Shown: piece after piece, positions 13,746 to 62,180 of the stretch
Layout of the letters: the number at the start of each line of letters is the position of its first letter
How positions within the stretch are numbered: position 1 is the stretch's first letter
IMG/VR virus record: IMGVR_UViG_3300032665_000013
Origin: a virus
Lineage: Duplodnaviria; Heunggongvirae; Uroviricota; Caudoviricetes
Reading direction: 5' to 3' (one strand)
DNA length: 64,000 nucleotides
Notes under the pieces: model-generated
What the model was told of the DNA's origin: nothing
What the model saw: the letters and a program-made list of their open reading frames with translations, nothing else
Database searches by the model: none
Made by a program: the position numbers and the translations under genes

Positions 13746-15177
13746 CAATACATATAATCCCGGATCCTTATCCAAGATATCCCTAATCATCACCAACTTT
13801 GATGGATCTAAACAAATAGACATATCTTCTATATTCGTTAATCTCTCTATTACTGAAGATATTTTCAAGAATACATTATACGGATCGGTTATTATCAAAG
13901 ATGCAATCGGCCTTCTCGAAGGTGCGCCAAATAATCCAAATTTACAAGGCTTTCCTATAGTCGGAGAAGAATTCCTTTTGGTATCGTATACTCCGTTAAA
14001 TCAAGATACAGTTAATTTAAGATTTATGGTATATTCTGTTGACGATATCGTATACGGAAAATCCAATTTTAAAAAACAGTACACCCTTAATTTCTGTAGT
14101 GAAGAACATCTGATCGATTCTACTACAGTGGTAATGAAAAGCTATACTGGCATTAATTCAGATAATGTTCAAAATCTATGTAAGGATTTCTTACAAATAG
14201 ATAAGGTAGATATACCATATAAAGGACATGCAATTAAGAAATTCGATAAGATACAGCCGACCAGAGGCAACCAGAATGTTGTCATTCCTAGATTGCCGCC
14301 AATTCAAGCCGCACATTTTCTTGCCAGACGTTCTATTGCGGCAGATGCAGCGATGAATACAGGTACATACCTATTCTTTGAAAACTTTAAAGGATTTAAT
14401 TTTTGTGATTTGGAATATCTTATCACCCAAGGAATAACAAAATTTAATTCATTTGGTAAATATACTTCTCAGACAGATTATCATCCTATGGTATACAGAT
14501 TCGAAGATCCTATTGTGGTTGGCTCTACCTCTAAACAACCACAACTAAGAGAAATGAATGCCATTCAAGCAATGCATCAAAAACATTATTTTGATACTAT
14601 TGAAAAATTAAAAAGAGGACTAATAGAATCCGATACAGTCCTATTCGATTATACCAAAGGAACTTATTCTCCTACCAGATATAGATATATAACTACTCTT
14701 GACAAAACCAATACCAATCAGGTTGGATTGGGTAATGAGACAGGAAACTCTTTTCCTACCAATAGTAATTCTTTTATGACATTTGCTACATCTAATAGCG
14801 ATAATGTCGTTAAATATAGTAAATTTTTCATGATACCTAAAGATACAAGCCAACCAGACACATTTCTAGATACGATTTATCCTAACAGGGCATCATATTT
14901 TACAGGAATGGCCCAGAATATGTTTACTCTAGATACTTATGGGAATACCAAAGTAAATGCAGGTGATGTCATTTATGCCACCATTCCGTCTAGTGTAGAT
15001 AATTCTCCTAATAAATTTATTAGTGGCTATTATCTTGTTTGTACTATTCGACATATCATAAGTCAAACATATTATCATATGAAAATGGATATCTATAAGA
15101 ATGCTGTTGACACAAAACTACCAACAATGGATTTACCTAAATCAAATACCACATCTAACACAGGAAATTCTAAATGA
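13738..15177 (+). CDS. 27: gp27 baseplate hub protein
   Basis: N-terminal LYG segment and C-terminal YYLVCTIRHIISQTYYHMKM (T4 gp27 [22 protein letters not shown]). Directly precedes gene 5 as in T4. Confidence 0.7.
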   Translation: MPNNTYNPGSLSKISLIITNFDGSKQIDISSIFVNLSITEDIFKNTLYGSVIIKDAIGLLEGAPNNPNLQGFPIVGEEFLLVSYTPLNQDTVNLRFMVYSVDDIVYGKSNFKKQYTLNFCSEEHLIDSTTVVMKSYTGINSDNVQNLCKDFLQIDKVDIPYKGHAIKKFDKIQPTRGNQNVVIPRLPPIQAAHFLARRSIAADAAMNTGTYLFFENFKGFNFCDLEYLITQGITKFNSFGKYTSQTDYHPMVYRFEDPIVVGSTSKQPQLREMNAIQAMHQKHYFDTIEKLKRGLIESDTVLFDYTKGTYSPTRYRYITTLDKTNTNQVGLGNETGNSFPTNSNSFMTFATSNSDNVVKYSKFFMIPKDTSQPDTFLDTIYPNRASYFTGMAQNMFTLDTYGNTKVNAGDVIYATIPSSVDNSPNKFISGYYLVCTIRHIISQTYYHMKMDIYKNAVDTKLPTMDLPKSNTTSNTGNSK

Positions 15178-16145
15178 TTAGTGACCTTCAACATATTATG
15201 GGAGTAGATCATACTATATGGTATGTCGGAGTTGTAGAAAATAGAGATGATCCATTAATGTTAGGTAGATGTCAAGTTAGAATAATTGGTGTACACCCTG
15301 ATGATAAAACATTAGTTCCTACCACAGATCTTCCATGGGCTATGCCAATTCTTCCTGTTAATGGATCACCGGCTTTTGCTGGCATGGGGCATTCTCCTGT
15401 AGGACCAGTTATTGGTACAACAGTTTTTGGTATATTTGCTGATGGTATAGAGCGCCAGCTTCCATATATGCTAGGAACGATTGCAGGCGGTGTAGGACAC
15501 CTTGACGCAGGTTCTAGTGCATCACTAGGGGATACGTTATCAGGCTTCGTAGCGGGCTTTATTCCCACAGCTGCATCAACTGGCATGATATCCCGTGGAG
15601 CATTCTATGCTAAATTTCTATTACAGAATTTAAATAATGCAGGATTTAAAATAAAAGATTTTCATGCAGCGGCAATAATGGGAAATATTGCTGGCGAATC
15701 TGGTGTTCAAGCCGTGGTAGAAGGACATTTTGGGCATCCATCTGGCCCTCCTCCTATCAACAGTCATAATGTCGGATACGGATTTGCACAATGGACCAAT
15801 AGTAGATTGGTTAATTATCTCAATTATTGTAGCCAACATAATAAGAACCCTCAGAGCGAGGATGCTAATATGAGTTTTCTCATATATGAACTTACAGGAT
15901 CATTTAAAGGTATGTTAAATGCGTTAGCATCTGGCGGTACGCATAGTGCAGCTGGAAATCCTAACGGACCACATAATGTGGATAATATCATAGGGGCAAC
16001 GTCCTATGTCCTAGGACAGTTTGAACGTCCTGCCTATAGATGTTTAGCCACTACAACACCTCGTCGCATAAATTATGCACAATTGATATGGGCTGGCATG
16101 AAAGGTACTGGCCAGCCAGTTAGTGGAACAGGAACCTATTCATGA
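15174..16145 (+). CDS. 5: gp5 N-terminal part: OB-fold plus tail-associated lysozyme domain
   Basis: WYVGVVENRDDPLMLGRCQVRIIGVHPDDK...TDLPWAMP matches the gp5 OB domain. GYGFAQWTNSRLVNYLNYC is the phage tail lysozyme signature. Confidence 0.75.
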   Translation: MISDLQHIMGVDHTIWYVGVVENRDDPLMLGRCQVRIIGVHPDDKTLVPTTDLPWAMPILPVNGSPAFAGMGHSPVGPVIGTTVFGIFADGIERQLPYMLGTIAGGVGHLDAGSSASLGDTLSGFVAGFIPTAASTGMISRGAFYAKFLLQNLNNAGFKIKDFHAAAIMGNIAGESGVQAVVEGHFGHPSGPPPINSHNVGYGFAQWTNSRLVNYLNYCSQHNKNPQSEDANMSFLIYELTGSFKGMLNALASGGTHSAAGNPNGPHNVDNIIGATSYVLGQFERPAYRCLATTTPRRINYAQLIWAGMKGTGQPVSGTGTYS

Positions 16146-17941
16146 CAGATTTATCAAACACAATTAATAATATCATAACTTCTACAGAAATGGCAATAGT
16201 AGATATAGCATCAACAGATTTTCTTTCTGTTTTCGGTGGAGCAGGGAACTTATCTGTAAATAATCTAACCCAATATATTCAAAGTTTTACTAATACTATC
16301 CCCATTTCTACTGTAGAAACATATCCAACGCTTTCTTCCACTACTTCAGATGTAGACACTAATACAATATTATATAATCCAAACGTTAGTGTTAGAAGTG
16401 ATATAACTGGATCAAATACATCTGCCAATGGAGTTGTTAATCCAACCACTAGATATGTCAATCCAATAGGTAATGAACCTCCTGTAGCGGGGCAGGTTAG
16501 CTATTATCCATATAATAAAGCTTATGTGAGTGAGTCAGGCCATCTTAAAGAAATAGACGATACTCCCGGTAATGAACGTTTGTTAGATCAGCATGTATCT
16601 GGTACATATCAGGAAATGAAGGCTTCAGGCGACCATGTTATCAAGGTGGTTGGTGACAGTTATACAATTGTTGCGGGCGCAGATCATATTACAGTTCAAG
16701 GTTCTATATTAGTTCATGGCGAACAAGAATGTAATATGAGAATAGGTGGTTCCATTAATATTATAACAGATGGAGGATGTAACTTAGTATCAAAGGGGGC
16801 ACTAAGAGTTAGAGCTTCTAGTTTGGCTTTCGAATCCACATCTGGTGATATTTCATTCCTATCTGCTGCCAATTTAACTATGACAGCCGCTGGATCCACT
16901 AATATTAAAAGTCAATCGACAGCTATCCAAAGTGATAATATAACATCTATCAAAGCTGGGCAGAATTTGGTTATAGAAGCTCAAAAGATATCAGAACATT
17001 CTATGTCTGATATTGTCGCTCAGGCAAGCGGAGGAATTTATATGCAATCCCAAGGAGATACAGATATTATTTCTGGTGGCAAGACTGTATTAACAGGATC
17101 ATCTATAGAAGTAGCCGGGATATTAAATGCACAAGGTCAAACTAATATGTTAGCGTCTGGTACTCCTGTTCAAGGACAAGGTTCAGCTAGTGGTAGTAGT
17201 CAATCCCCAGATCAATTTGTTCCAGCTCAATTATCTAATGGATCTGGTATAACTGGATCTAACAATCCAGATGACGTTTATATGATGAATGATGATGATA
17301 CCCAATCTGCAATGACAGCTATTCAAACAGGTCTTAAAAATGGTACTATCCAATCTGCGGATCTTATACCACCTGCGGCTGGTCAATCAGATGCGGCTGG
17401 TGCGCCTAATGTCAATTTTAATGCTATTCCAACTTCTATTATTGCGCTGCCTAGTGGAGGTGCTTTAGATAATCTTCAGCTATCGCCTAATTTCACTTTG
17501 GGAAGACTTTCTAAACATGCTTTGGCAAGCCCTACATCAGTAGTAGCTCAACATGGGTTAAGTCAATTGCAGATGGTACAAAATCTTCAAATGTTAGCAT
17601 TGAATTCTCTGGAATTAATTAAGAAAAAGTTTCCAGACATGCAGATTACAAGTGGATTTAGATTAGGAAGTTCTAATTCTCAACATGAACGAGGTATGGC
17701 ATGTGATATGCAATTTGCATCTGCAAATGCAAATAGAAATCAATACTTTACATATGCTCAATGGATACGAGATAATGTACCATACGATCAATTATTATTA
17801 GAGTATAAAAATTCTGGTACTAAATTACCATGGATTCATATATCATATAATGGTGGAGGAAATAGACGCCAAGTATTAACCCTTTTTAACGGGCTAACAC
17901 ATGGGAGTGGGCTGATCGACCTTTCGGGTAGTTCTTCATAA
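16142..17941 (+). CDS. gp5-like beta-helical spike protein with C-terminal M15-family peptidase domain
   Basis: VxGxxxxx-type repeats (IKVVGDSYTIVAGADHITVQGSILVHG). C-terminal SGFRLGSSNSQHERGMACD has the SxHxxGxAxD zinc-binding signature of VanY/L-Ala-D-Glu peptidases. Confidence 0.6.
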   Translation: MTDLSNTINNIITSTEMAIVDIASTDFLSVFGGAGNLSVNNLTQYIQSFTNTIPISTVETYPTLSSTTSDVDTNTILYNPNVSVRSDITGSNTSANGVVNPTTRYVNPIGNEPPVAGQVSYYPYNKAYVSESGHLKEIDDTPGNERLLDQHVSGTYQEMKASGDHVIKVVGDSYTIVAGADHITVQGSILVHGEQECNMRIGGSINIITDGGCNLVSKGALRVRASSLAFESTSGDISFLSAANLTMTAAGSTNIKSQSTAIQSDNITSIKAGQNLVIEAQKISEHSMSDIVAQASGGIYMQSQGDTDIISGGKTVLTGSSIEVAGILNAQGQTNMLASGTPVQGQGSASGSSQSPDQFVPAQLSNGSGITGSNNPDDVYMMNDDDTQSAMTAIQTGLKNGTIQSADLIPPAAGQSDAAGAPNVNFNAIPTSIIALPSGGALDNLQLSPNFTLGRLSKHALASPTSVVAQHGLSQLQMVQNLQMLALNSLELIKKKFPDMQITSGFRLGSSNSQHERGMACDMQFASANANRNQYFTYAQWIRDNVPYDQLLLEYKNSGTKLPWIHISYNGGGNRRQVLTLFNGLTHGSGLIDLSGSSS

Positions 17942-24422: not shown

Positions 24423-25130
24423 TCAAATCAATGCGTTGTTACGAACATCATCAAACAGCTGGTCACGCAATAGTTCACCATCTGAATACACATCTTGCAA
24501 AACATCATCTTCTGCATACATCTCATATTTAACGGGATGGCTCTCCGTGGTATAAGTAAAAAACTTACTATCCCAATATGGGGTATGCTTAAGAATCATT
24601 CGACCCTTCTTAGACCTTTTACCAGAATCAGTAAGAGGATCCTTATACACGTCAATCCATTCACCGTTGATAAATGCCGCCGAACACTTCATTGCAAACT
24701 TTTGATCGTCACGATTAACAATCTGTAGAAGAGCGCCGCCTTGGCCGAATGCCACATTATCAGCACTATAACCAATAGCAATAATAGCATTCAGAATTTC
24801 TTTGATAGTGTCAATAGTAATACCATCGCCTTGAATTACACGAACATTGTTGAGAACCTTATATCCTTTATCATTAATAGCATGCCCAAAATGATAATCA
24901 AGGATTCGGATGCAGCTTTCTACCACTGTTGCTGGATCGCCACTATCTGGGCGGATAACGGTAAACCCACCAAGTTCTCCGTTCAAGATAATCTTCTGTT
25001 TAATTTCAGGATCAGTTCCTAGGAGTTCGCAAAACTCAAAAATATTATAAGTATCTCCTACTATTGCAAAAGTCTTACCACCGGTGCCAAAATTGTCAAT
25101 CATCGTGTTAATGTAGGTTCGTTCACTCAT
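24423..25130 (-). CDS. nadV: nicotinamide phosphoribosyltransferase NadV/NAMPT, C-terminal half
   Basis: TVIRPDSGDP, GYKVLNNVRVIQGDGITIDTIKEIL, AFGQGGALLQ, KDPLTDSGKRSKKGR align with human NAMPT residues about 300-440. Own start ATG 25128-25130 with GGAAAGGAAA SD. Confidence 0.85.
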   Translation of the reverse strand: MSERTYINTMIDNFGTGGKTFAIVGDTYNIFEFCELLGTDPEIKQKIILNGELGGFTVIRPDSGDPATVVESCIRILDYHFGHAINDKGYKVLNNVRVIQGDGITIDTIKEILNAIIAIGYSADNVAFGQGGALLQIVNRDDQKFAMKCSAAFINGEWIDVYKDPLTDSGKRSKKGRMILKHTPYWDSKFFTYTTESHPVKYEMYAEDDVLQDVYSDGELLRDQLFDDVRNNALI

Positions 25131-26206
25131 TTTATATTTCCTTTCCAATCAACTAGTTTAAAAGAGCATCCATTAAACTTAGCGTTTCTTTTTGAATAAC
25201 TATTATATGTGCCTTCTTTGATGGCTATGTTCCATACCCCTTCAGTGCATCTATGTTCTCTCAAAAATGAACCTTTATTACCACAAAAGGTAAACAAAAG
25301 ATTGTCTACCGGGGAATAGCATTCTATTTTCTTGTCAGTAGCCTTCATGTGAATACTAGGATCATACTCATCGCAGTTGATATTCACAAACTTATTCAGT
25401 TCTTTAATAAAGACTGTGACCATCCCCTTTGTTGTTCCATGATCAGGTTTCCTATTTTCTTTGGACGCCAGTGTTGAGTATCTATCCTTATTATGGTAAT
25501 ATTCTTCGGTTGTTACATGACATATTTTATCAGTGAAGGAGTCTTTTACAGTAACCTTACCTGCATGAATGCCATTAAGTTCATGATTGTCTTCTGTAGT
25601 TGCATATCTTCGCATTCCAGCATCATCTATTACTTTCCCTCCAAACACCTTAACATGAACACTAGGATCAAACATGCTAACTGGCATGGAACTTGTTTCT
25701 CCTGTTTCAATAACTCGTACACTAACTTTGCCAGACGATGCGGTGCGATATAGATGTTTATTGTTTCGGTATTCCTCTACGGAAACTCTACAAACACCAC
25801 CAGATGATATTTTTATAACCCGAACACTGTTGCTAGTAGGATAAGCATGAATAGTAGAATCAAACTCATCTTTTGGAATCCTGAAATAAGTTGAATCTTC
25901 TAGCAATCTAACAACAACCGTATTTTTAGTATTCCACCCTCTGCCTCCGGATATTATATTATAAGTATCTACCCTTTTCACGAAATCTTCATTTACAAGT
26001 TCCGCTTCTTTGTTATTCATCTCATCAAACGAATCATACATGTATAATATGCGTCTGCTAAACGCATGAACACCGTATTTTAACAAGGCATTAGTAAAAC
26101 GAGTCCCGGAACCAAGATATCCATCATCAATGTTGGTAGTAGAATGCTGTCCAACATATATCATACCATTGATAGTATTTGTAGTTTCGTATATAATATA
26201 AAACAT
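25127..26206 (-). mobile_element. free-standing GIY-YIG homing endonuclease gene inserted inside nadV
   Basis: MFYIIYETTNTINGMIYVGQHS...GYLGSG. TGA stop overlaps the ATG of the nadV C-half (ATGA). Start 35 nt after the nadV N-half stop. Confidence 0.85.
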
Positions 26207-26240
26207 TTTTAAGTATGCTCCATTGCAGTAACACACTTAT

Positions 26241-54151: not shown

Positions 54152-54772
54152 TTACATAGTTGGGCCATTACCATTTTTAAACCCAATTTCTCCGCCTTGA
54201 TCAATAATGGCCTGACATACATCATCAAACAGCATAGGTTTGAATTCCGTATGCTCGGCAGATACACAAAAATATCTTGGATCTATTCCTTCTTTATAAA
54301 AGGTCTGATATCCAAAACTTCCACCGGGACCATCTAGTTCTTTGTATGGAACTTTCGTCATAACCCTGTTAGAATGAAGATGACCATGTATATTACATCC
54401 GAACCTTCCAAGAGACTCAGCATGAATTGGGATATGAGATAGAATCAACCCATTCATTACATGGTAACCACGAATATCATAAAAATACGGAGTATAATCA
54501 GTCAATTTAAAAATATCATGATTGCCCTTGATCAAAACCTTCTTTCCATTCAGTTTACCAAATGTAGACAGATGTTTACGACCAATAACCGCATCTCCTA
54601 GTACATAAACTTTATCGTTATCTTGAACTGTATCATTCCACAGTTCAATCATAGCAATATCCATCTCTTCCGCCGAATTCCAAGGCCGAATGGGGTTACC
54701 ATTTTTATCTGTAAAAACACACATATTGTTATGTCCAAAATGTGTATCAGCGATTAGAAATGTTCTACTCAT
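54152..54772 (-). CDS. calcineurin-like metallophosphoesterase
   Basis: ADTHFGH, GDAVIGR, GNHD motifs. Confidence 0.65.
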   Translation of the reverse strand: MSRTFLIADTHFGHNNMCVFTDKNGNPIRPWNSAEEMDIAMIELWNDTVQDNDKVYVLGDAVIGRKHLSTFGKLNGKKVLIKGNHDIFKLTDYTPYFYDIRGYHVMNGLILSHIPIHAESLGRFGCNIHGHLHSNRVMTKVPYKELDGPGGSFGYQTFYKEGIDPRYFCVSAEHTEFKPMLFDDVCQAIIDQGGEIGFKNGNGPTM

Positions 54773-54783
54773 ATTTATTCCTT

Positions 54784-54945
54784 ACAAATGATCCATTAAA
54801 ATATCCGACCATTTTTCAATTATTTCATCTCTGATATCATCGTCAAGATCGTTCCATTCATCTCCGATACCTTTACGAGATTCCAAATCTTTAACAATGG
54901 CCTCTGCCGCTTCTCTATACGAAGCAATATCATTTGTCAACATCC
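54784..54945 (-). CDS. small acidic ORF (53 aa)
   Basis: ATG to TAA. Below the ORF-track cutoff. Confidence 0.25.
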
Positions 54946-54953
54946 TTGACTCC

Positions 54954-55421
54954 TCAAACATAAGAAATTTTAGAAAAACCTTCTTCCATCATGGGATGTT
55001 GAAAATTCATCGCCATAGATTCCAAAACATGTTTTGGAATTGTCTTACCGAGACGAGAATCCAACCTACGCTGCCATTCTTCTTTATCTGGAACAGGAAA
55101 TACAACAGCCTTAAAATTATATCCAAATGGTTTCAAAATATCGATAATTCTTTTCCGAGACTTCACCGAAAGATTAGTACGATCAATGTAGATATCAGAC
55201 CCAGCTTCAGCTAACTTAGCCAGACGATTAAACATGGTTTTCTCAGCAAACCCTATAAGATCTTTAAATGCTGCATCATATGTCATCATATAGGTATTAG
55301 CAATATCTTCAATAATTCGATCTGTAGAAACAACAAAGGTATTAAAATCTTTCTGTGCATCAACCCAAGTGGATTTACCGGATCCGGGAACGCCGACTAA
55401 AAAAGTACATTTACGCATCAT
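54954..55421 (-). CDS. pnk: polynucleotide 5'-kinase (T4 Pnk kinase domain only)
   Basis: [10 protein letters not shown] P-loop, [26 protein letters not shown] match T4 Pnk [38 protein letters not shown]. The phosphatase domain is absent from this ORF. Confidence 0.7.
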   Translation of the reverse strand: [155 protein letters not shown]

Positions 55422-55596
55422 CAGATCCTTTCTTCTTAAAAGTATACTTCAATTTTGGAACAACAACCATTTGTTGAGTTTCATTATAATAAGGATTAAC
55501 CGAAACTCCAACCAATTCCCAACCTTCTCGTTTATGCCATGCCAGAGTTTCAGGAGAAAGTCCAGTTTTAACTGTCAAAATATTATAATTACTCAT
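55411..55596 (-). CDS. hypothetical protein
   Basis: 61 aa ORF. Confidence 0.3.
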   Translation of the reverse strand: MSNYNILTVKTGLSPETLAWHKREGWELVGVSVNPYYNETQQMVVVPKLKYTFKKKGSDDA

Positions 55597-56725
55597 AATC
55601 TCTTACGCCTTTAAATTTTCCAAATCTTGGTATACCATCAGGAGTATAATCCTGAAATACTACAGTACCCATTTTACCTATAATTTGAGATTTGTCAACC
55701 AAAAGTTGTCGGCAATATTCGAGAGAACCTAATGGACCACTTCCAAATAATTTACCTTCTTTTGTCTGACAAATTACATTCGCAGCTACTCCCTCACGAT
55801 TACCATCTCCATCCACCACATCAATAATCAAAAATTCATCATCCTGAAATTCTTTCCATTTCATTAATGATGTCGAACGCTTAAATTCATATTTTTCATT
55901 GAGACGTACCATGCCACCTTCAAACTCAGATTGTAGATATTCCGAACATACATTACCGACATTTTCCAATGGACAGTCGAGAATAGTATCTACGGCCACA
56001 ATAGAAGGATGATTAATAACATATACGATTGCCTCATACGTAGAATATCTTTGTATAAATCCTACATCTATAGATGGCACATCATAAATCCAGTATTGAA
56101 CCTTGGCAGCAGATTCGATAAGATCTTCCGCAGTTGGAGTTTTTTTCTTAATCAATGACATTATCTTATTAAAATTACGGCTATATTCATGGTTATAAAG
56201 TTCGCCGTCCAGAATAAGATCTGGGAATTGTTCAAATAATGGTGCCAACGCATCCGAAATATGGGGAACAGATACAAATAATTCTTTATTACGAGAAAAA
56301 CATCCATCTTTGGTGACGATACATCTGGCACCATCTAATTTTGGTTGGACTGATACTGAGGTAACTCCGGCTTCAATTAAAAACCGTAGACGATCTTTCC
56401 ATTTTGTTGCCAACATAGGTTCAACACCTTGTCTGTTATCAACATCATTAATGTTTTCAAAATAGCCTTTTTTTATTTGTTTTTCATACATCGCTATTAC
56501 TTCAAGTTCGGCCTGATCTTCTGGCGAAGTTTCGTTAGTTTTTCCTACATTTTTAGACTTACACCTAGTCCAACTAGAAATAGTCTTCTTTCCATCTATT
56601 TGGCCAGAAATAGTATGGTAAGACCCCCCATCGATTTCTGCGTACCAAATTTGAATATTACCTTTGGTTGTTCTTTTATACAGATGAGGTTTCGTTTTCA
56701 TTAATAATTTCTTTCTTAAAAACAT
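55589..56725 (-). CDS. ATP-dependent DNA ligase (T7-size)
   Basis: Motif I VQPKLDGARCIV (KxDGxR). EPMLATKW upstream. Confidence 0.75.
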   Translation of the reverse strand: MFLRKKLLMKTKPHLYKRTTKGNIQIWYAEIDGGSYHTISGQIDGKKTISSWTRCKSKNVGKTNETSPEDQAELEVIAMYEKQIKKGYFENINDVDNRQGVEPMLATKWKDRLRFLIEAGVTSVSVQPKLDGARCIVTKDGCFSRNKELFVSVPHISDALAPLFEQFPDLILDGELYNHEYSRNFNKIMSLIKKKTPTAEDLIESAAKVQYWIYDVPSIDVGFIQRYSTYEAIVYVINHPSIVAVDTILDCPLENVGNVCSEYLQSEFEGGMVRLNEKYEFKRSTSLMKWKEFQDDEFLIIDVVDGDGNREGVAANVICQTKEGKLFGSGPLGSLEYCRQLLVDKSQIIGKMGTVVFQDYTPDGIPRFGKFKGVRDYE

Positions 56726-56836
56726 AATGTGTGTGATAATTTTTCACATATACTGAGACTAATTCCCATCCATCCGCTCCATATCTATTCATTGTAGCTT
56801 CAGACATTTCAACAAAATTTAAATATTGAAATGTCT

Positions 56837-57268
56837 TCACTTCTCGGCCTCTGGATAGATAATAATCATAGGCTTTTGTTGTTTTTCTGCATAATCATGC
56901 GTATACCATGTTCCTCCATTAGGTTGCCATTCTTTTTGATATGGCACTACCATAAGAAGATCTGTCTCGTCAACTATATTTCTATTACGAGCAAAATAGC
57001 TTAAAGGCTCTCTACGTTCATCTGAGATAACAAAAGCTCGTAGATCCTCTTTTGCAGGCGGATGGCATACAATTTTATAACCAAGTTGTTTGGCTATATC
57101 TGCTAATTCTGCATCAACTCCTATACAATCGCCATGATGAAATTCAAATTCTTCATAAATTTTTGCACCTTCATGTTTAATATTATGAAGAAAATTGCAT
57201 GCCATTTGAATTTGATATTGATTACAACCGGAACGTGTGCCTGTTACACCGATCTTGATAACACTCAT
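56837..57268 (-). CDS. hypothetical protein (possible Rossmann-like nucleotide-binding fold)
   Basis: 143 aa ORF. HHGDCIGVDAELADIAKQLG pattern. Confidence 0.4.
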   Translation of the reverse strand: MSVIKIGVTGTRSGCNQYQIQMACNFLHNIKHEGAKIYEEFEFHHGDCIGVDAELADIAKQLGYKIVCHPPAKEDLRAFVISDERREPLSYFARNRNIVDETDLLMVVPYQKEWQPNGGTWYTHDYAEKQQKPMIIIYPEAEK

Positions 57269-57684
57269 ACATCAGTCTCCGAATTTAACTTATTAATAAA
57301 CCAAGGTCTAGCGATATTCGCAATAGGACCACCAAGTTTCTTTGGGTCAATCTGGGAAGCAATCATTGTATCCATTTCTTCCTTCATGATATCATTGAAA
57401 ACCCAACGAATAAAGTCTCCCATAGATTTCATTTCAAATAGCATAATTTGAACAGTAGAATCAGAATTAACAAACGTCAATGCTCTTGACGAAACATGTG
57501 CATTCCAATATCCAGATTCATACATCCATACTAAAGCTTCATCTCTAGCCTTGGTAGATTTGGGATAGATATCCCAATCATTAATTGGTTTATTTGTGAC
57601 TAAACTGGTAATAGCTCCGCCAGCAATAAAGCATTCTTTCAGACCAGCTGACCCACCGAATACAGCAAGAATTTTATCTTTCAT
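57265..57684 (-). CDS. minimal pol-beta-type nucleotidyltransferase-like protein
   Basis: FGGSAG...NDWDIY resembles the GS...D.D NTase motif. Confidence 0.4.
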   Translation of the reverse strand: MKDKILAVFGGSAGLKECFIAGGAITSLVTNKPINDWDIYPKSTKARDEALVWMYESGYWNAHVSSRALTFVNSDSTVQIMLFEMKSMGDFIRWVFNDIMKEEMDTMIASQIDPKKLGGPIANIARPWFINKLNSETDV

Positions 57685-57816
57685 GCTAGAACTCCCACTC
57701 GAATGGTGGGAGGTTGACGATGATCGCTCGGAAGACGTTCCTTCTAAAATAGGAAAAGATTTAATAGATTTTATAATATCATGCTTTCTACATTAAAGAT
57801 TATACACATACTTCGT

Positions 57817-58617
57817 TTAGATGTCAAGTGTTAAATTGGGATTGAACTCATTTTTATTTTCTTCTCTGTAACCCTTTGGATTAGCTACAATTCTAGTTTT
57901 TCCAATGTGGTAATCGAAGCTAGAGTGAGTGTGTCCATGTGTCCAAAGCACAATATGCTCATTATCTAAAATCAATTCGGACAAATCAGAGTGATATGCA
58001 CCGTTCAAGTGATAATCACCAGCATATTTTGCATTTATACTAAGTGGACTTGGGGCATGATGAGTGCATACCACAACTTTCCCAACATACCCCTCAATTT
58101 CCTTTTTAAGGTATGCTACAGCCTTGTCATGTAGCAATACGGCATCAGATACCTTGAATTTACGATAATTAGGCTTACCCCATGTAATAAGCCTAAAGTC
58201 ATTCATACAATCACCAATAATAACAAGAGACGTAGGATTACGTTTGTTGCCATCAAACCATAAAGTGGAACCGATAAATTTAATCTCATCTATAACAATA
58301 GAATCATTATCCAAAACATGAACATTTGGATACGCATTAAACAACACTTTTAAATATGCCGCATATGAATCGATCCTACCATGATAATATTCATGGTTGC
58401 CAAGGATATAAATTACATTCTTCCAGTTTTCAGAACAATAATCCATAAATGAGCTAAAATCAGCATTAAGAGTAAGCTGATAAGGACTCTCTGATCCACG
58501 AAGTAGATAGTCAATCACGTAAATATCCCCGGAAAGAACGAGAACGTCCGATCCGGGGATAGGGCGAGGCAGAGTATCAAACTCTGCATGTAGATCACTT
58601 AAAACGGTTATTTTCAT
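57817..58617 (-). CDS. calcineurin-like metallophosphoesterase
   Basis: LSDLH, GDIYV, GNHEY, HHAP, GHTH motifs. Confidence 0.65.
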   Translation of the reverse strand: MKITVLSDLHAEFDTLPRPIPGSDVLVLSGDIYVIDYLLRGSESPYQLTLNADFSSFMDYCSENWKNVIYILGNHEYYHGRIDSYAAYLKVLFNAYPNVHVLDNDSIVIDEIKFIGSTLWFDGNKRNPTSLVIIGDCMNDFRLITWGKPNYRKFKVSDAVLLHDKAVAYLKKEIEGYVGKVVVCTHHAPSPLSINAKYAGDYHLNGAYHSDLSELILDNEHIVLWTHGHTHSSFDYHIGKTRIVANPKGYREENKNEFNPNLTLDI

Positions 58618-58924
58618 CTCTATACATCCTATAATCTTTAATTAATGGTTCTACAATTAGTACATAAGTTGGAATTATTGTAATCGCACCAAGTATGATA
58701 CACAATGCACCAACCTCTCCCACAAATGATGCTAGTAGAAAAAATATTTCAATTGATCCCCATACTCCAACACAAGCTGCAAATAGTAAACTAAATGCGG
58801 CTACAAAATCCATCAGCGCATCATTATCCAATATAGCTGCCCAAAGAGCTTTCCAATCAATCATTATACATCGCTCCATCAAACCATTCATCACGAAGTT
58901 GATTATATTTGGTATTGCTACCAA
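58595..58924 (-). CDS. membrane protein
   Basis: Three hydrophobic helices. Confidence 0.4.
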   Translation of the reverse strand: MVAIPNIINFVMNGLMERCIMIDWKALWAAILDNDALMDFVAAFSLLFAACVGVWGSIEIFFLLASFVGEVGALCIILGAITIIPTYVLIVEPLIKDYRMYRDENNRFK

Positions 58925-59669
58925 GATTATTACGAACCATATTTAAAATGGCATCGTATGCTAGGGCCGGAGAATTGTCATCAAACAATTTAAATACCAA
59001 AGGTCGAAGGTAAGGAAGCTCCTTATCACCATATTTGATGGCATAAGTTTTACGATCCAACCCAAGAGTTTTTGTATAATATTCGACCCTGTTGAAAAGA
59101 CAGGTTGCCATTTCATGCAAGAAAAACTCAATTTTATATTCGAAATTTATCAACTTGATACGATCTTCATCTAGCACATGAGCTTTAATATCGTCAAGAG
59201 AATTTTCCAAAATCATCTCAACAATATTTCGATCTTGTAAAATCGATTCCTTGGCTTTATGGATTTGGACATACCAATGGCACTTCAATTTTACCATATG
59301 GCCTGAGTCAAATCGAACCACAAAACCTTCAAGGTCTTCCAAATCATGGACGTATTCAAGGAAAGCCTTAGTATCGTTTTGTTCTCCATAATTGGTCATA
59401 TTAAATACCCGAACAACAGGAATATCACCATTACCTTCTACAAATTTAACCATGGAATCATGCTTTGCATAATGGCCATTATGCAAATGACGAATAGCAG
59501 TCAAAACAAGCTGATCTTCTTTATAATCAAGTACGATACGTTGTTTACGTGAACACCATTCAAAGATCGGAGTAAGGTGCATGGAAATCATCCAACGAGC
59601 AAACTTCTCATATTGGGGATTGTTCTTCACAAACTCCTCTACAGGCTTAGCAACATCGGTAGCACCCAT
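58857..59669 (-). CDS. rnlA: RNA ligase 1 (RnlA), C-terminal 270 aa, separate ORF in +1 frame
   Basis: PIFEWCSRKQRIVLDYKE, GFVVRFDSGHMVKLKCHWYV, GLDRKTYAIKYG align with T4 Rnl1 [50 protein letters not shown]. Confidence 0.75.
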   Translation of the reverse strand: MGATDVAKPVEEFVKNNPQYEKFARWMISMHLTPIFEWCSRKQRIVLDYKEDQLVLTAIRHLHNGHYAKHDSMVKFVEGNGDIPVVRVFNMTNYGEQNDTKAFLEYVHDLEDLEGFVVRFDSGHMVKLKCHWYVQIHKAKESILQDRNIVEMILENSLDDIKAHVLDEDRIKLINFEYKIEFFLHEMATCLFNRVEYYTKTLGLDRKTYAIKYGDKELPYLRPLVFKLFDDNSPALAYDAILNMVRNNLGSNTKYNQLRDEWFDGAMYND

Positions 59670-59679
59670 CTTAGTACCC

Positions 59680-60102
59680 CTAGATCATCTGACCATCGAC
59701 AATGAATGGAGCAATCATGCTTCCATCTAATTTTTCAACAATGACATGTGGATGACCAAGATTTATTTGATTTTCCTGAGTTTCTTCACGCTCGTTCACG
59801 TTGAAGAACTTATGATAAGGGCGACGAATAATATCACCAGTTTTAGAATCAAAAATGATACCACGACATTCACGGCGAATTTTGGCTTGATATTGTGGAA
59901 GATTACGCTCCTCTAAAGAACCAATCGTCTTAAACTCACCATTTACATCAGGAAACGTATCATGAAAACAAACGTTATAGTTTACAACAGTATAACCTTC
60001 TTTCTCGGCAACTACAAATTCAGGACGATCCTTGATAGCAGGTAGAACATCTTTAATATTATAGATTTCTGGGAATTCATATCCGTACATAATATATCTC
60101 AC
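59680..60102 (-). CDS. rnlA: RNA ligase 1 (RnlA), N-terminal 140 aa including KxDG motif I
   Basis: ECRGIIFDS...RPYHKFFNVNE...IVEKLDGSMIAPFIVDGQMI matches T4 Rnl1 ECRGIMFEM...RPMEKFFNLNE...ILTKEDGSLVSTYLDGDEIL. Ends at TAG 10 nt before the C-part ATG. Confidence 0.75.
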   Translation of the reverse strand: MRYIMYGYEFPEIYNIKDVLPAIKDRPEFVVAEKEGYTVVNYNVCFHDTFPDVNGEFKTIGSLEERNLPQYQAKIRRECRGIIFDSKTGDIIRRPYHKFFNVNEREETQENQINLGHPHVIVEKLDGSMIAPFIVDGQMI

Positions 60103-61479: not shown

Positions 61480-61557
61480 TGGTAGCCCCACCGAGTTTCG
61501 ATCCCGGATCATAGACTTGAGAGGTCTATATGCTACCCAACTTACACCATGGGGGCC
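61480..61557 (-). tRNA. tRNA-Glu(CTC)-like
   Basis: Anticodon arm ATAGAC-CTCTCAA-GTCTAT, T-arm CCGGG-ATCGAAA-CTCGG, CCA. Acceptor 6 bp plus one mismatch. The 5' end overlaps the stop of the GIY-YIG gene. Confidence 0.5.
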
Positions 61558-62180
61558 GTTCTTCCTTTATACCATCCATCTGGAATATTGTCAATTCTTT
61601 TTATCTTTTTATTTACTATACCATCAGTAATCCATTGTGTTCCAAATTGTGAGTTTTCTTTTCCACAATTTTTTCCTATTTTAGATAAACGCATTTTATT
61701 TTTAGATTCATCTGAATGTTTTTTACCAAGAAATGTAGAAAATGCTTCTTTACCGTGGCGTTCTATAATCTTAGATATTCTATTTAATTTCCAACTTTCG
61801 GATGAATGATATTCTTTAAATTGTTTAGATGTATAATTTCTACGACTATATCCTCCCATGCTAGAAGCTCGTGGTGATCTTAGTCCATTTGAATTAATAT
61901 AACTAAATCCACCTTTACCTCCAACACAGATATTGTAGGTGTCATTTCTTGCACAAAACTCTTCAGTTACTAATTCGGCTTCCTTGGAATTCATCTCAAA
62001 TTTGGTATCAAAAATATATACGATTTCTTTATCAAAATTACTTATTCCATATTTTTCAATGGCATGATTCAATAATGTTCCTGATCCCATATATGAATCT
62101 TTTAAATTCTTTGTTTGATGTTTTCCGATATAAATTTTACCATTTATCTTATTTGTTATTTTATAAATTGTATAAAACAA
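61542..62180 (-). mobile_element. GIY-YIG homing endonuclease
   Basis: MFYTIYKITNKINGKIYIGKHQ...SYMGSG. Paralogous to the nadV-inserted endonuclease. Confidence 0.75.

Follow-up and report, generated by a model that had tools for sequence, protein, structure and literature searches.

The question raised by this locus is whether a phage gene for a tRNA-repair ligase that has come apart into two open reading frames (ORFs) still provides a working enzyme. The gene specifies an RNA ligase 1 (Rnl1) of the type found in bacteriophage T4, and it lies on the minus strand of virus record IMGVR_UViG_3300032665_000013, a stretch of 64,000 nucleotides (nt) that was analyzed as a whole and that we call the window. 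A preliminary description of the locus had placed four explanations side by side, namely programmed +1 recoding at a UAG codon, a recent pseudogenizing indel, a sequencing error and a genuine two-subunit ligase. We conclude that the locus is probably a recent, lineage-specific loss-of-function frameshift allele of the T4 Rnl1-type (RnlA) ligase, and that its departure from the intact gene amounts to one inserted A.

Two ORFs that match one RNA ligase 1

The ORF for the N-terminal part of the ligase (the N-part) runs from 59680 to 60090 on the minus strand and encodes 136 amino acids (aa) from an ATG at 60090. A longer mechanical version of the same ORF (59680–60102, minus strand) opens with GTG and has 140 aa; the relatives, which begin with MNYEFP, suggest that the ATG at 60090 is most likely the true start, and the JGI annotation begins there as well. 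Residue numbers in this text (W141, G142, T143, K144, M145) count from the 140-aa GTG start, so that the stop codon follows residue 140, or residue 136 when counted from the ATG. The N-part ends in KLDGSMIAPFIVDGQMI (...FIVDGQMI) directly before a TAG at 59682–59680. After a spacer of 10 nt (GGGTACTAAG, 59679–59670), the ORF for the C-terminal part (the C-part; 58857–59669, minus strand), which encodes 270 aa beginning with MGATDV, follows in the +1 frame relative to the N-part. The exact 136-aa N-part protein is found on 12 contigs and the exact 270-aa C-part protein on 8–13 contigs.

Both ORFs match the same Pfam family, PF09511 (RNA_lig_T4_1), well above its gathering cut-off of 28.3 bits, the N-part over profile positions 1–67 (E 2e-15, 57.6 bits) and the C-part over positions 96–227 (E 3e-16, 60.5 bits). 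The C-part also matches PF20819 (T4_Rnl1_C; 30.0 bits against a cut-off of 27), the C-terminal domain that confers tRNA specificity on T4 Rnl1 (PMC6379707). Because one family is matched on complementary parts of its profile, which chance would not give, the two ORFs are confirmed as complementary halves of one T4 Rnl1-type RNA ligase 1. The N-part carries the N-terminal sub-domain, with RRECRG and HKFFN, and the motif I lysine of EK124LDGS (Lys codon at 59733–59731, minus strand); these align with R54, K75 and the nucleophile K99 of T4 Rnl1, where the sub-domain Arg and Lys bind the ATP gamma-phosphate (PMC6379707). The C-part carries motifs III (IFEW), IV (EGFVV) and V (MVKLK), which align with FEF, EGYVA and HFKIK of T4 Rnl1, followed by the helical T4_Rnl1_C domain, and its first residue is the invariant Met of a GTKMG sequence.

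When ATC-T-AGG-GGT-ACT-AAG-ATG is read with a +1 shift, the halves join into a reconstructed protein of 414 aa that aligns end to end with full-length relatives and with T4 Rnl1. The preliminary description had proposed this layout and this alignment. The layout is borne out by the coordinates and by PF09511 on both halves, and the alignment with T4 Rnl1 is correct, although relatives at 60–65% identity give much stronger evidence. The only significant sequence matches in the PDB are T4 Rnl1 structures, and T4 Rnl1 structures (2c5u, 5tt6 and 9do4) are likewise the best Foldseek matches of an AlphaFold2 model of the reconstructed protein (E ~1e-17; 399 columns with 2c5u). In this model, which has a predicted local distance difference test score of 76.6, strands span residues 128–135 and 138–143 and the chain is all-helical from residue 275. 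The break is placed within strand 138–143 of the hairpin that follows motif I, and the N-fragment would thus stop in the middle of a core strand.

The inserted A and its reproducibility

We searched 5.8 billion proteins with the 414-aa reconstructed protein as the query and recovered the exact C-fragment; all other matches listed were single proteins of ~400 aa at 56–65% identity. Among 3737 homologues, the C-fragment itself is the sole protein above 65% identity. The gene is one ORF in the ~200 relatives examined (41–65% identity), and none of them has a frameshift at this site. In 26 aligned relatives (58–65% identity), the junction reads ...G(Q/E/K)MI-W-GTKMGATDVAKPVEEF within a single ORF, with G142, T143, K144, M145 and G146 invariant and either W or F at position 141. 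Homologues from cultured phages, among them Caulobacter phage Cr30, Roseobacter phage DSS3P8 and Synechococcus phage B23, are single ORFs as well, at 38–39% identity.

The same holds at the DNA level, where the gene forms one continuous tblastn segment at each of 80 IMG/VR loci, and the DNA of ~70 of the 80, with the GTK motif, reads ATG ATC TGG GGN ACN AAG ATG GG. The window reads ATG ATC T-A-GG GGT ACT AAG ATG GG, which is the sequence of the relatives plus exactly one A; the allele with the extra base thus has TCTAGGGG where the intact form has TCTGGGG. On this comparison, the entire anomaly is one A inserted at 59681 (minus strand) in the conserved TGG codon for Trp, and this single base explains both the premature TAG at 59682–59680 and the +1 frame of what follows. 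The junction is shared by 0 of the 80 IMG/VR loci, 0 of 119 aligned database proteins and none of the 150 best cluster representatives; near-identical DNA was not found in the phage collection, nor the exact junction pattern in IMG/VR. Two pattern scans of a further collection, metagenome_contigs, which does not include the known JGI contigs, matched nothing, whether the extra base was made optional or only the downstream flank was used. The genes that flank the ligase in the window are not syntenic, or not detectable, at the related loci. The idea of a recent pseudogenizing indel therefore gains support, as one A in a conserved TGG codon that is unique to this lineage.

If the extra base were an artefact of sequencing or assembly, the real phage would have one continuous ORF. 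In favor of this, the base adjoins a GGGG run, and contigs from several assemblies break inside the gene. However, seven contigs from as many samples or runs share an identical junction of 46 nt. Five come from JGI metagenomes (3300031759, 3300032579, 3300032676, 3300032562 and 3300032677) and two from Logan assemblies of SRA runs (SRR11285472 and SRR11285593), which were built with two different pipelines, and the seven contigs are overall 99.99–100% identical to the window. Moreover, the inserted base is an A and not a lengthened run of G. The contig ends fall at 59191, 59498, 59545 and 59611 in the JGI assemblies and at 59814 and 59812 in the Logan contigs, and the latter two coincide with the starts of the longest exact k-mers in common with related phages (window 59780–59814; 35 nt shared with relative L023 and 32 nt with L011 and L012). 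The same JGI samples also yielded some of the related phages, for example L005, L031 and L044. The breaks are thus de Bruijn-graph branching at shared conserved k-mers; a structural variant was considered as the cause of the clustered ends and rejected because the ends coincide with these k-mers. The insertion is real, and the sequencing error that the preliminary description had allowed for is excluded because the junction is identical in seven contigs from two pipelines, which leaves an artefact of any kind with a practically negligible probability. The sample accession numbers are consecutive and probably belong to one study site, so the recurrence of the junction shows persistence in one population and not geographic spread.

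What the break removes

The spacer between the two ORFs contains residues that neither product has. The codons AGG GGT ACT AAG (59670–59681, minus strand), for R-G-T-K, can be read only in the frame of the C-part and upstream of its ATG. Thus only the +1 frame of the 10-nt spacer specifies T143-K144, the dipeptide of motif Ia, which both ORF products lack; the basic residue of this motif is present only in a hypothetical frameshifted product. In the frame of the C-part, the codons before the ATG are TGA-TCT-AGG-GGT-ACT-AAG, with the TGA at 59687–59685, and there is no alternative start codon between this TGA and the ATG, so the C-fragment cannot carry the R-G-T-K residues. The spacing from the motif I Lys to the motif Ia Lys is 20 residues (K124 to K144), as it is from K99 to K119 in T4 Rnl1. 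Motif Ia of T4 Rnl1 is reportedly S118-K119, of which K119 is said to be essential. In the Rnl1-like fungal ligase Trl1-LIG, the motif Ia Lys (SKHS) touches the ATP gamma-phosphate and has been proposed to bind the RNA 5′-PO4 (PMC6379707), and the motif Ia loop of MthRnl (Thr117-Arg118) is described as a catalytically critical element whose structure is shared by all ATP-dependent RNA ligases (PMC4797309). Because neither fragment has the Thr-Lys of motif Ia and the modeled core beta-strand is cut, the ligase activity of the two fragments is most likely lost or down to a trace.

The course of events would then be as follows. Insertion of one A would have changed ATC TGG GGT to ATC TAG GGG T, creating a premature TAG and leaving the remainder of the gene in the +1 frame. 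Translation would stop at the TAG, and some ribosomes would probably start again 10 nt further on, at the ancestral internal Met, where the GGGGU that remains of the Trp-Gly codons would help; re-initiation at this ATG is plausible. Two fragments would thus be present in the cell, the N-fragment carrying motif I and the C-fragment motifs III–V together with the tRNA-specificity domain. The mutation would be evolutionarily recent and fixed in the sampled phage population, and its persistence would fit an accessory gene that in T4 is needed only against hosts that cleave tRNA anticodon loops. T4 Rnl1 is dispensable on hosts without an anticodon nuclease, so loss of the gene would be biologically unremarkable, and the ligase may likewise be dispensable in the current host of this phage. 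The physiological role of T4 Rnl1 is tRNA repair (PMC6379707).

That neither half carries other damage is why we judge the event to be recent. The catalytic motifs away from the junction (RRECRG, HKFFN, KLDG, IFEW, EGFVV and MVKLK) are all intact, and at the columns that are at least 95% conserved among 119 relatives, the window protein deviates at 14 of 188, mostly by conservative changes (I/V, L/V, F/Y); a comparably isolated intact relative (P0102) deviates at 18 of 187. There is thus no sign of prolonged decay in the aligned residues, which fits a young pseudogene and is by itself also compatible with continuing selection. The locus combines what a recent frameshift pseudogene would be expected to show, with one mutational step, restriction to one lineage, removal of invariant residues and few or no secondary lesions.

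Three observations weigh against a recent loss-of-function allele, or narrow it. The lack of a second lesion in either half would also be expected under continuing selection, for instance through leaky +1 decoding or complementation between the fragments. The broken allele is the only one assembled in the seven samples, so it is not strongly deleterious. With samples that probably represent one study site, "fixed" holds for that population only. If the gene is indeed a recent loss-of-function allele, a strongly conserved phage tRNA-repair ligase can be disabled by a one-base insertion and yet persist in a natural population, and this persistence fits a role for Rnl1 as an accessory counter-defense gene.

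Unlikely alternatives: recoding, a split enzyme or reuse of the fragments

Full-length ligase could still be made if ribosomes paused at the UAG, slipped by one base and then read AGG-GGU-ACU-AAG. Such programmed or otherwise useful +1 frameshifting at AUC-UAG-G (or AUG-A) would give a ligase with W141R and with motif Ia restored. The TGA at 59687–59685 in the C-part frame means that a rescuing shift is possible only at AUG|A or AUC|U, and at this sole point of possible rescue a stop codon does occupy the A site; furthermore, the rescued protein has every invariant motif, secondary lesions are lacking, and of the three stop codons UAG is used least often in the window (6 of 87 crude genes). 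In the prfB type of +1 shift, a slippery CUUU is needed at which the P-site tRNA re-pairs, and mutating the CUUU abolishes the product; in Escherichia coli, the shift is stimulated by a Shine-Dalgarno (SD) sequence 3 nt upstream and is further favored by a weak stop context (PMC10798248). Here the UAG directly follows AUC, but the P-site codon cannot re-pair in the +1 frame (AUC to UCU; AUG to UGA), and the upstream sequence GGUCAG-AUG-AUC has no SD, the G-run lying downstream of the stop instead. A region of 141 nt around the site folds no better than shuffled controls (z −0.71), so a stimulatory structure is absent, and the site is conserved in none of the relatives. No tRNA with an expanded anticodon loop is encoded in the window, where tRNA-Trp has a normal 7-nt loop, the shift would place Arg at a position that is otherwise aromatic (W or F), and one random insertion fully accounts for the site. 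The programmed recoding put forward in the preliminary description therefore finds no support in slippery codon, SD, RNA structure or conservation, and we regard frameshifting of this kind as very improbable. There is a similarly slim chance that a working full-length ligase arises from non-canonical +1 decoding at AUC-UAG-G, by a shift without P-site re-pairing or by decoding of UAGG as a quadruplet, perhaps with the aid of a tRNA that the phage encodes outside the window. If recoding did take place, the frameshift would act as an expression throttle on a tRNA-repair enzyme and would represent a new type of phage +1 frameshift at a site without a slippery sequence.

The two ORFs could instead encode a functional ligase in pieces, where separate N and C polypeptides, the latter made by termination-reinitiation, assemble non-covalently into an active enzyme. 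The distance from stop to start is only 10 nt, with GGGGU 6 nt before the ATG, in a phage that uses SD sequences (AGGA, GGAG or GAGG precede 55% of crude gene starts, against a background of 7%), and both fragments are intact and called as genes in 8–13 contigs. The preliminary description had noted that the C-part has its own ATG and a G-rich SD. Both are indeed there, and the GGGGT may be a fortuitous SD, but they are ancestral coding sequence inside every intact relative; since the ATG codes for the invariant Met of GTKMG and the Trp-Gly codons make up the "SD", they are not adaptations to a two-gene arrangement. GGGG precedes 1 of 87 crude gene starts, that one being this gene, and is thus not the usual SD of the phage. 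With no alternative start in its frame, the C-part cannot supply the Gly-Thr-Lys of the motif Ia region, which together with the conserved aromatic residue is missing from both products, and the cut falls within a beta-strand of the nucleotidyltransferase core. No relative is arranged in this way, and those that are truly split use an intein elsewhere, after KLDG. Here only 10 nt separate the ORFs and four conserved residues are lost, unlike a gene divided by a split intein or a mobile element. The two-subunit ligase is thus left unsupported and appears improbable. We consider it no less improbable that one or both fragments have been retained for a new, non-ligase role, such as an RNA-binding or decoy function of a C-fragment with its tRNA-binding domain. 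The C-fragment does keep PF20819, the domain behind the tRNA specificity of T4 Rnl1 (PMC6379707), and neither half shows secondary decay, but the undecayed state is equally expected from a recent mutation, positive evidence for such a role is lacking, and stand-alone fragments occur in no diverged relative. A recent loss-of-function allele therefore remains the reading that we prefer.

Other ways around the stop codon were considered and rejected. Read-through of the TAG would meet GGG TAC TAA as the next in-frame codons, and neither a suppressor nor a quadruplet tRNA is found among the 18 tRNAs in the window. For a bypass of the T4 gene 60 type, the only matched pair is AUG139...AUG145; a hop between them would delete I-W-G-T-K-M, including motif Ia, and no structure is present.

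The conserved internal sequence TGGGGNACNAAGATG (window 59650–59690; also in relatives L089 and L090) mimics an SD followed by a start codon, and gene callers therefore start truncated Rnl1 genes at the GTKMG Met and create spurious "C-subunit" proteins in databases. This is a warning for annotation, as a convincing "second subunit" will be called whenever the 5′ part of an Rnl1 gene is damaged or cut off. We looked for proteins resembling the C-fragment among the 150 best of 3023 cluster representatives and found three others that start at the same Met (P0185, P0200 and P0205). They were rejected as independent splits because a nonsense codon in a contig with 0.6x coverage (L088), a contig edge (L089) and the C-half of an intein (L090) explain them. 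In the first of these (L088:150–300; ERZ15185825, k-mer coverage 0.6), an in-frame TGA replaces a Gly codon beside the same Trp (...TIW*TKMGDTDV), which represents either another, independent knock-out at this position or an error due to low coverage. Some relatives (P0133; L090:200–450, frame 1) have a split-intein-like C-half of ~35 aa (M-AKITKIEKI...FYANGILVHN|SMI...) fused to a C-extein that starts directly after the motif I KLDG. In L090, the 336 nt upstream contain no N-extein, and the one further gene called there lies on the opposite strand; from its sequence this locus looks like a "fractured" Rnl1 gene whose product is joined by trans-splicing.

Genomic setting and known systems

The window comes from a T4-like myovirus of low GC content (36%), an uncultivated freshwater phage, and encodes a gp32-like single-stranded DNA-binding protein, a gp5-like baseplate hub, 18 tRNA genes and two homing-endonuclease-like ORFs. 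Several genes close to the ligase, all on the minus strand, have related functions: a Pnk-like P-loop kinase (54954–55421), two metallophosphoesterases (57817–58617 and 54152–54772) and an ATP-dependent DNA ligase (55589–56725). The stretch from 54152 to 58617 is thus plausibly a neighborhood for RNA end healing and sealing. Within it, an ORF of 139 aa (57265–57684, minus strand) matches the end of RNA-ligase PHROG 548 with its C-terminal 50 residues. Of the 18 tRNA genes, which lie within 2863–62320, 17 are encoded on the minus strand at 43.7–62.3 kb; tRNA-Gln and tRNA-Glu occur twice each and tRNA-Leu three times, and there are no suppressors in the set. One homing-endonuclease-like ORF (61542–62090, minus strand; PHROG 314 and NUMOD3) sits among the tRNA genes ~1.5 kb upstream of the ligase, and the other, also of PHROG 314, is at 25127–26236 on the minus strand. 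Elsewhere in the window, two plus-strand ORFs (15174–16145 and 16142–17941) overlap by ATGA and both match the gp5-like baseplate hub/tail lysozyme family, at positions 11–112 and 308–556 of the 868 in PHROG 430; this may be another split gene or a natural organization into two genes.

The closest known system is T4 Rnl1 itself (RnlA, gp63; PDB 2C5U, 5TT6, 9DO4), with which the reconstructed ligase shares the Pfam families PF09511 and PF20819 and the order of parts, from the equivalents of Arg54 and Lys75 in the N-terminal sub-domain through KxDG, the motif Ia basic residue 20 positions further on and motifs III, IV and V to the helical C-terminal domain. The setting is similar too, with a Pnk-like kinase, phosphoesterases and many tRNA genes nearby, as expected for tRNA repair. 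The window ligase differs from T4 Rnl1 in its low identity (~22%), in an insertion of ~25 residues near positions 50–75 and, above all, in the +1 frameshift, which means that no single polypeptide is encoded. Intact Rnl1 homologues from uncultivated freshwater and marine phages are much closer, at 58–65% identity over the whole reconstructed length, and those of Cr30, DSS3P8 and B23 have 38–39% identity over the same length; the intact homologues have an identical or nearly identical GTKMGATDVAKPVEEF at the junction and are single ORFs of ~400 aa with TGG where the window has TAGG, and their flanking genes are not syntenic with those of the window.

The break has also to be set against genes whose coding sequence is interrupted and which still function. 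As in prfB, which encodes release factor RF2, an in-frame stop stands where the downstream frame is +1; the window site differs from prfB in that it lacks a CUUU-type slippery sequence and an SD 3 nt upstream, is not conserved and has no autoregulatory logic. Phage genes-in-pieces include genes split by homing endonucleases, such as Aeh1 nrdA. Like these and the "fractured" split-intein genes, the window has one enzyme laid out as two adjacent ORFs, but it contains neither an intein half nor a mobile gene between the ORFs, and the split has cost residues; the intein C-half of the relatives sits after KLDG, 13 codons upstream of the break in the window.

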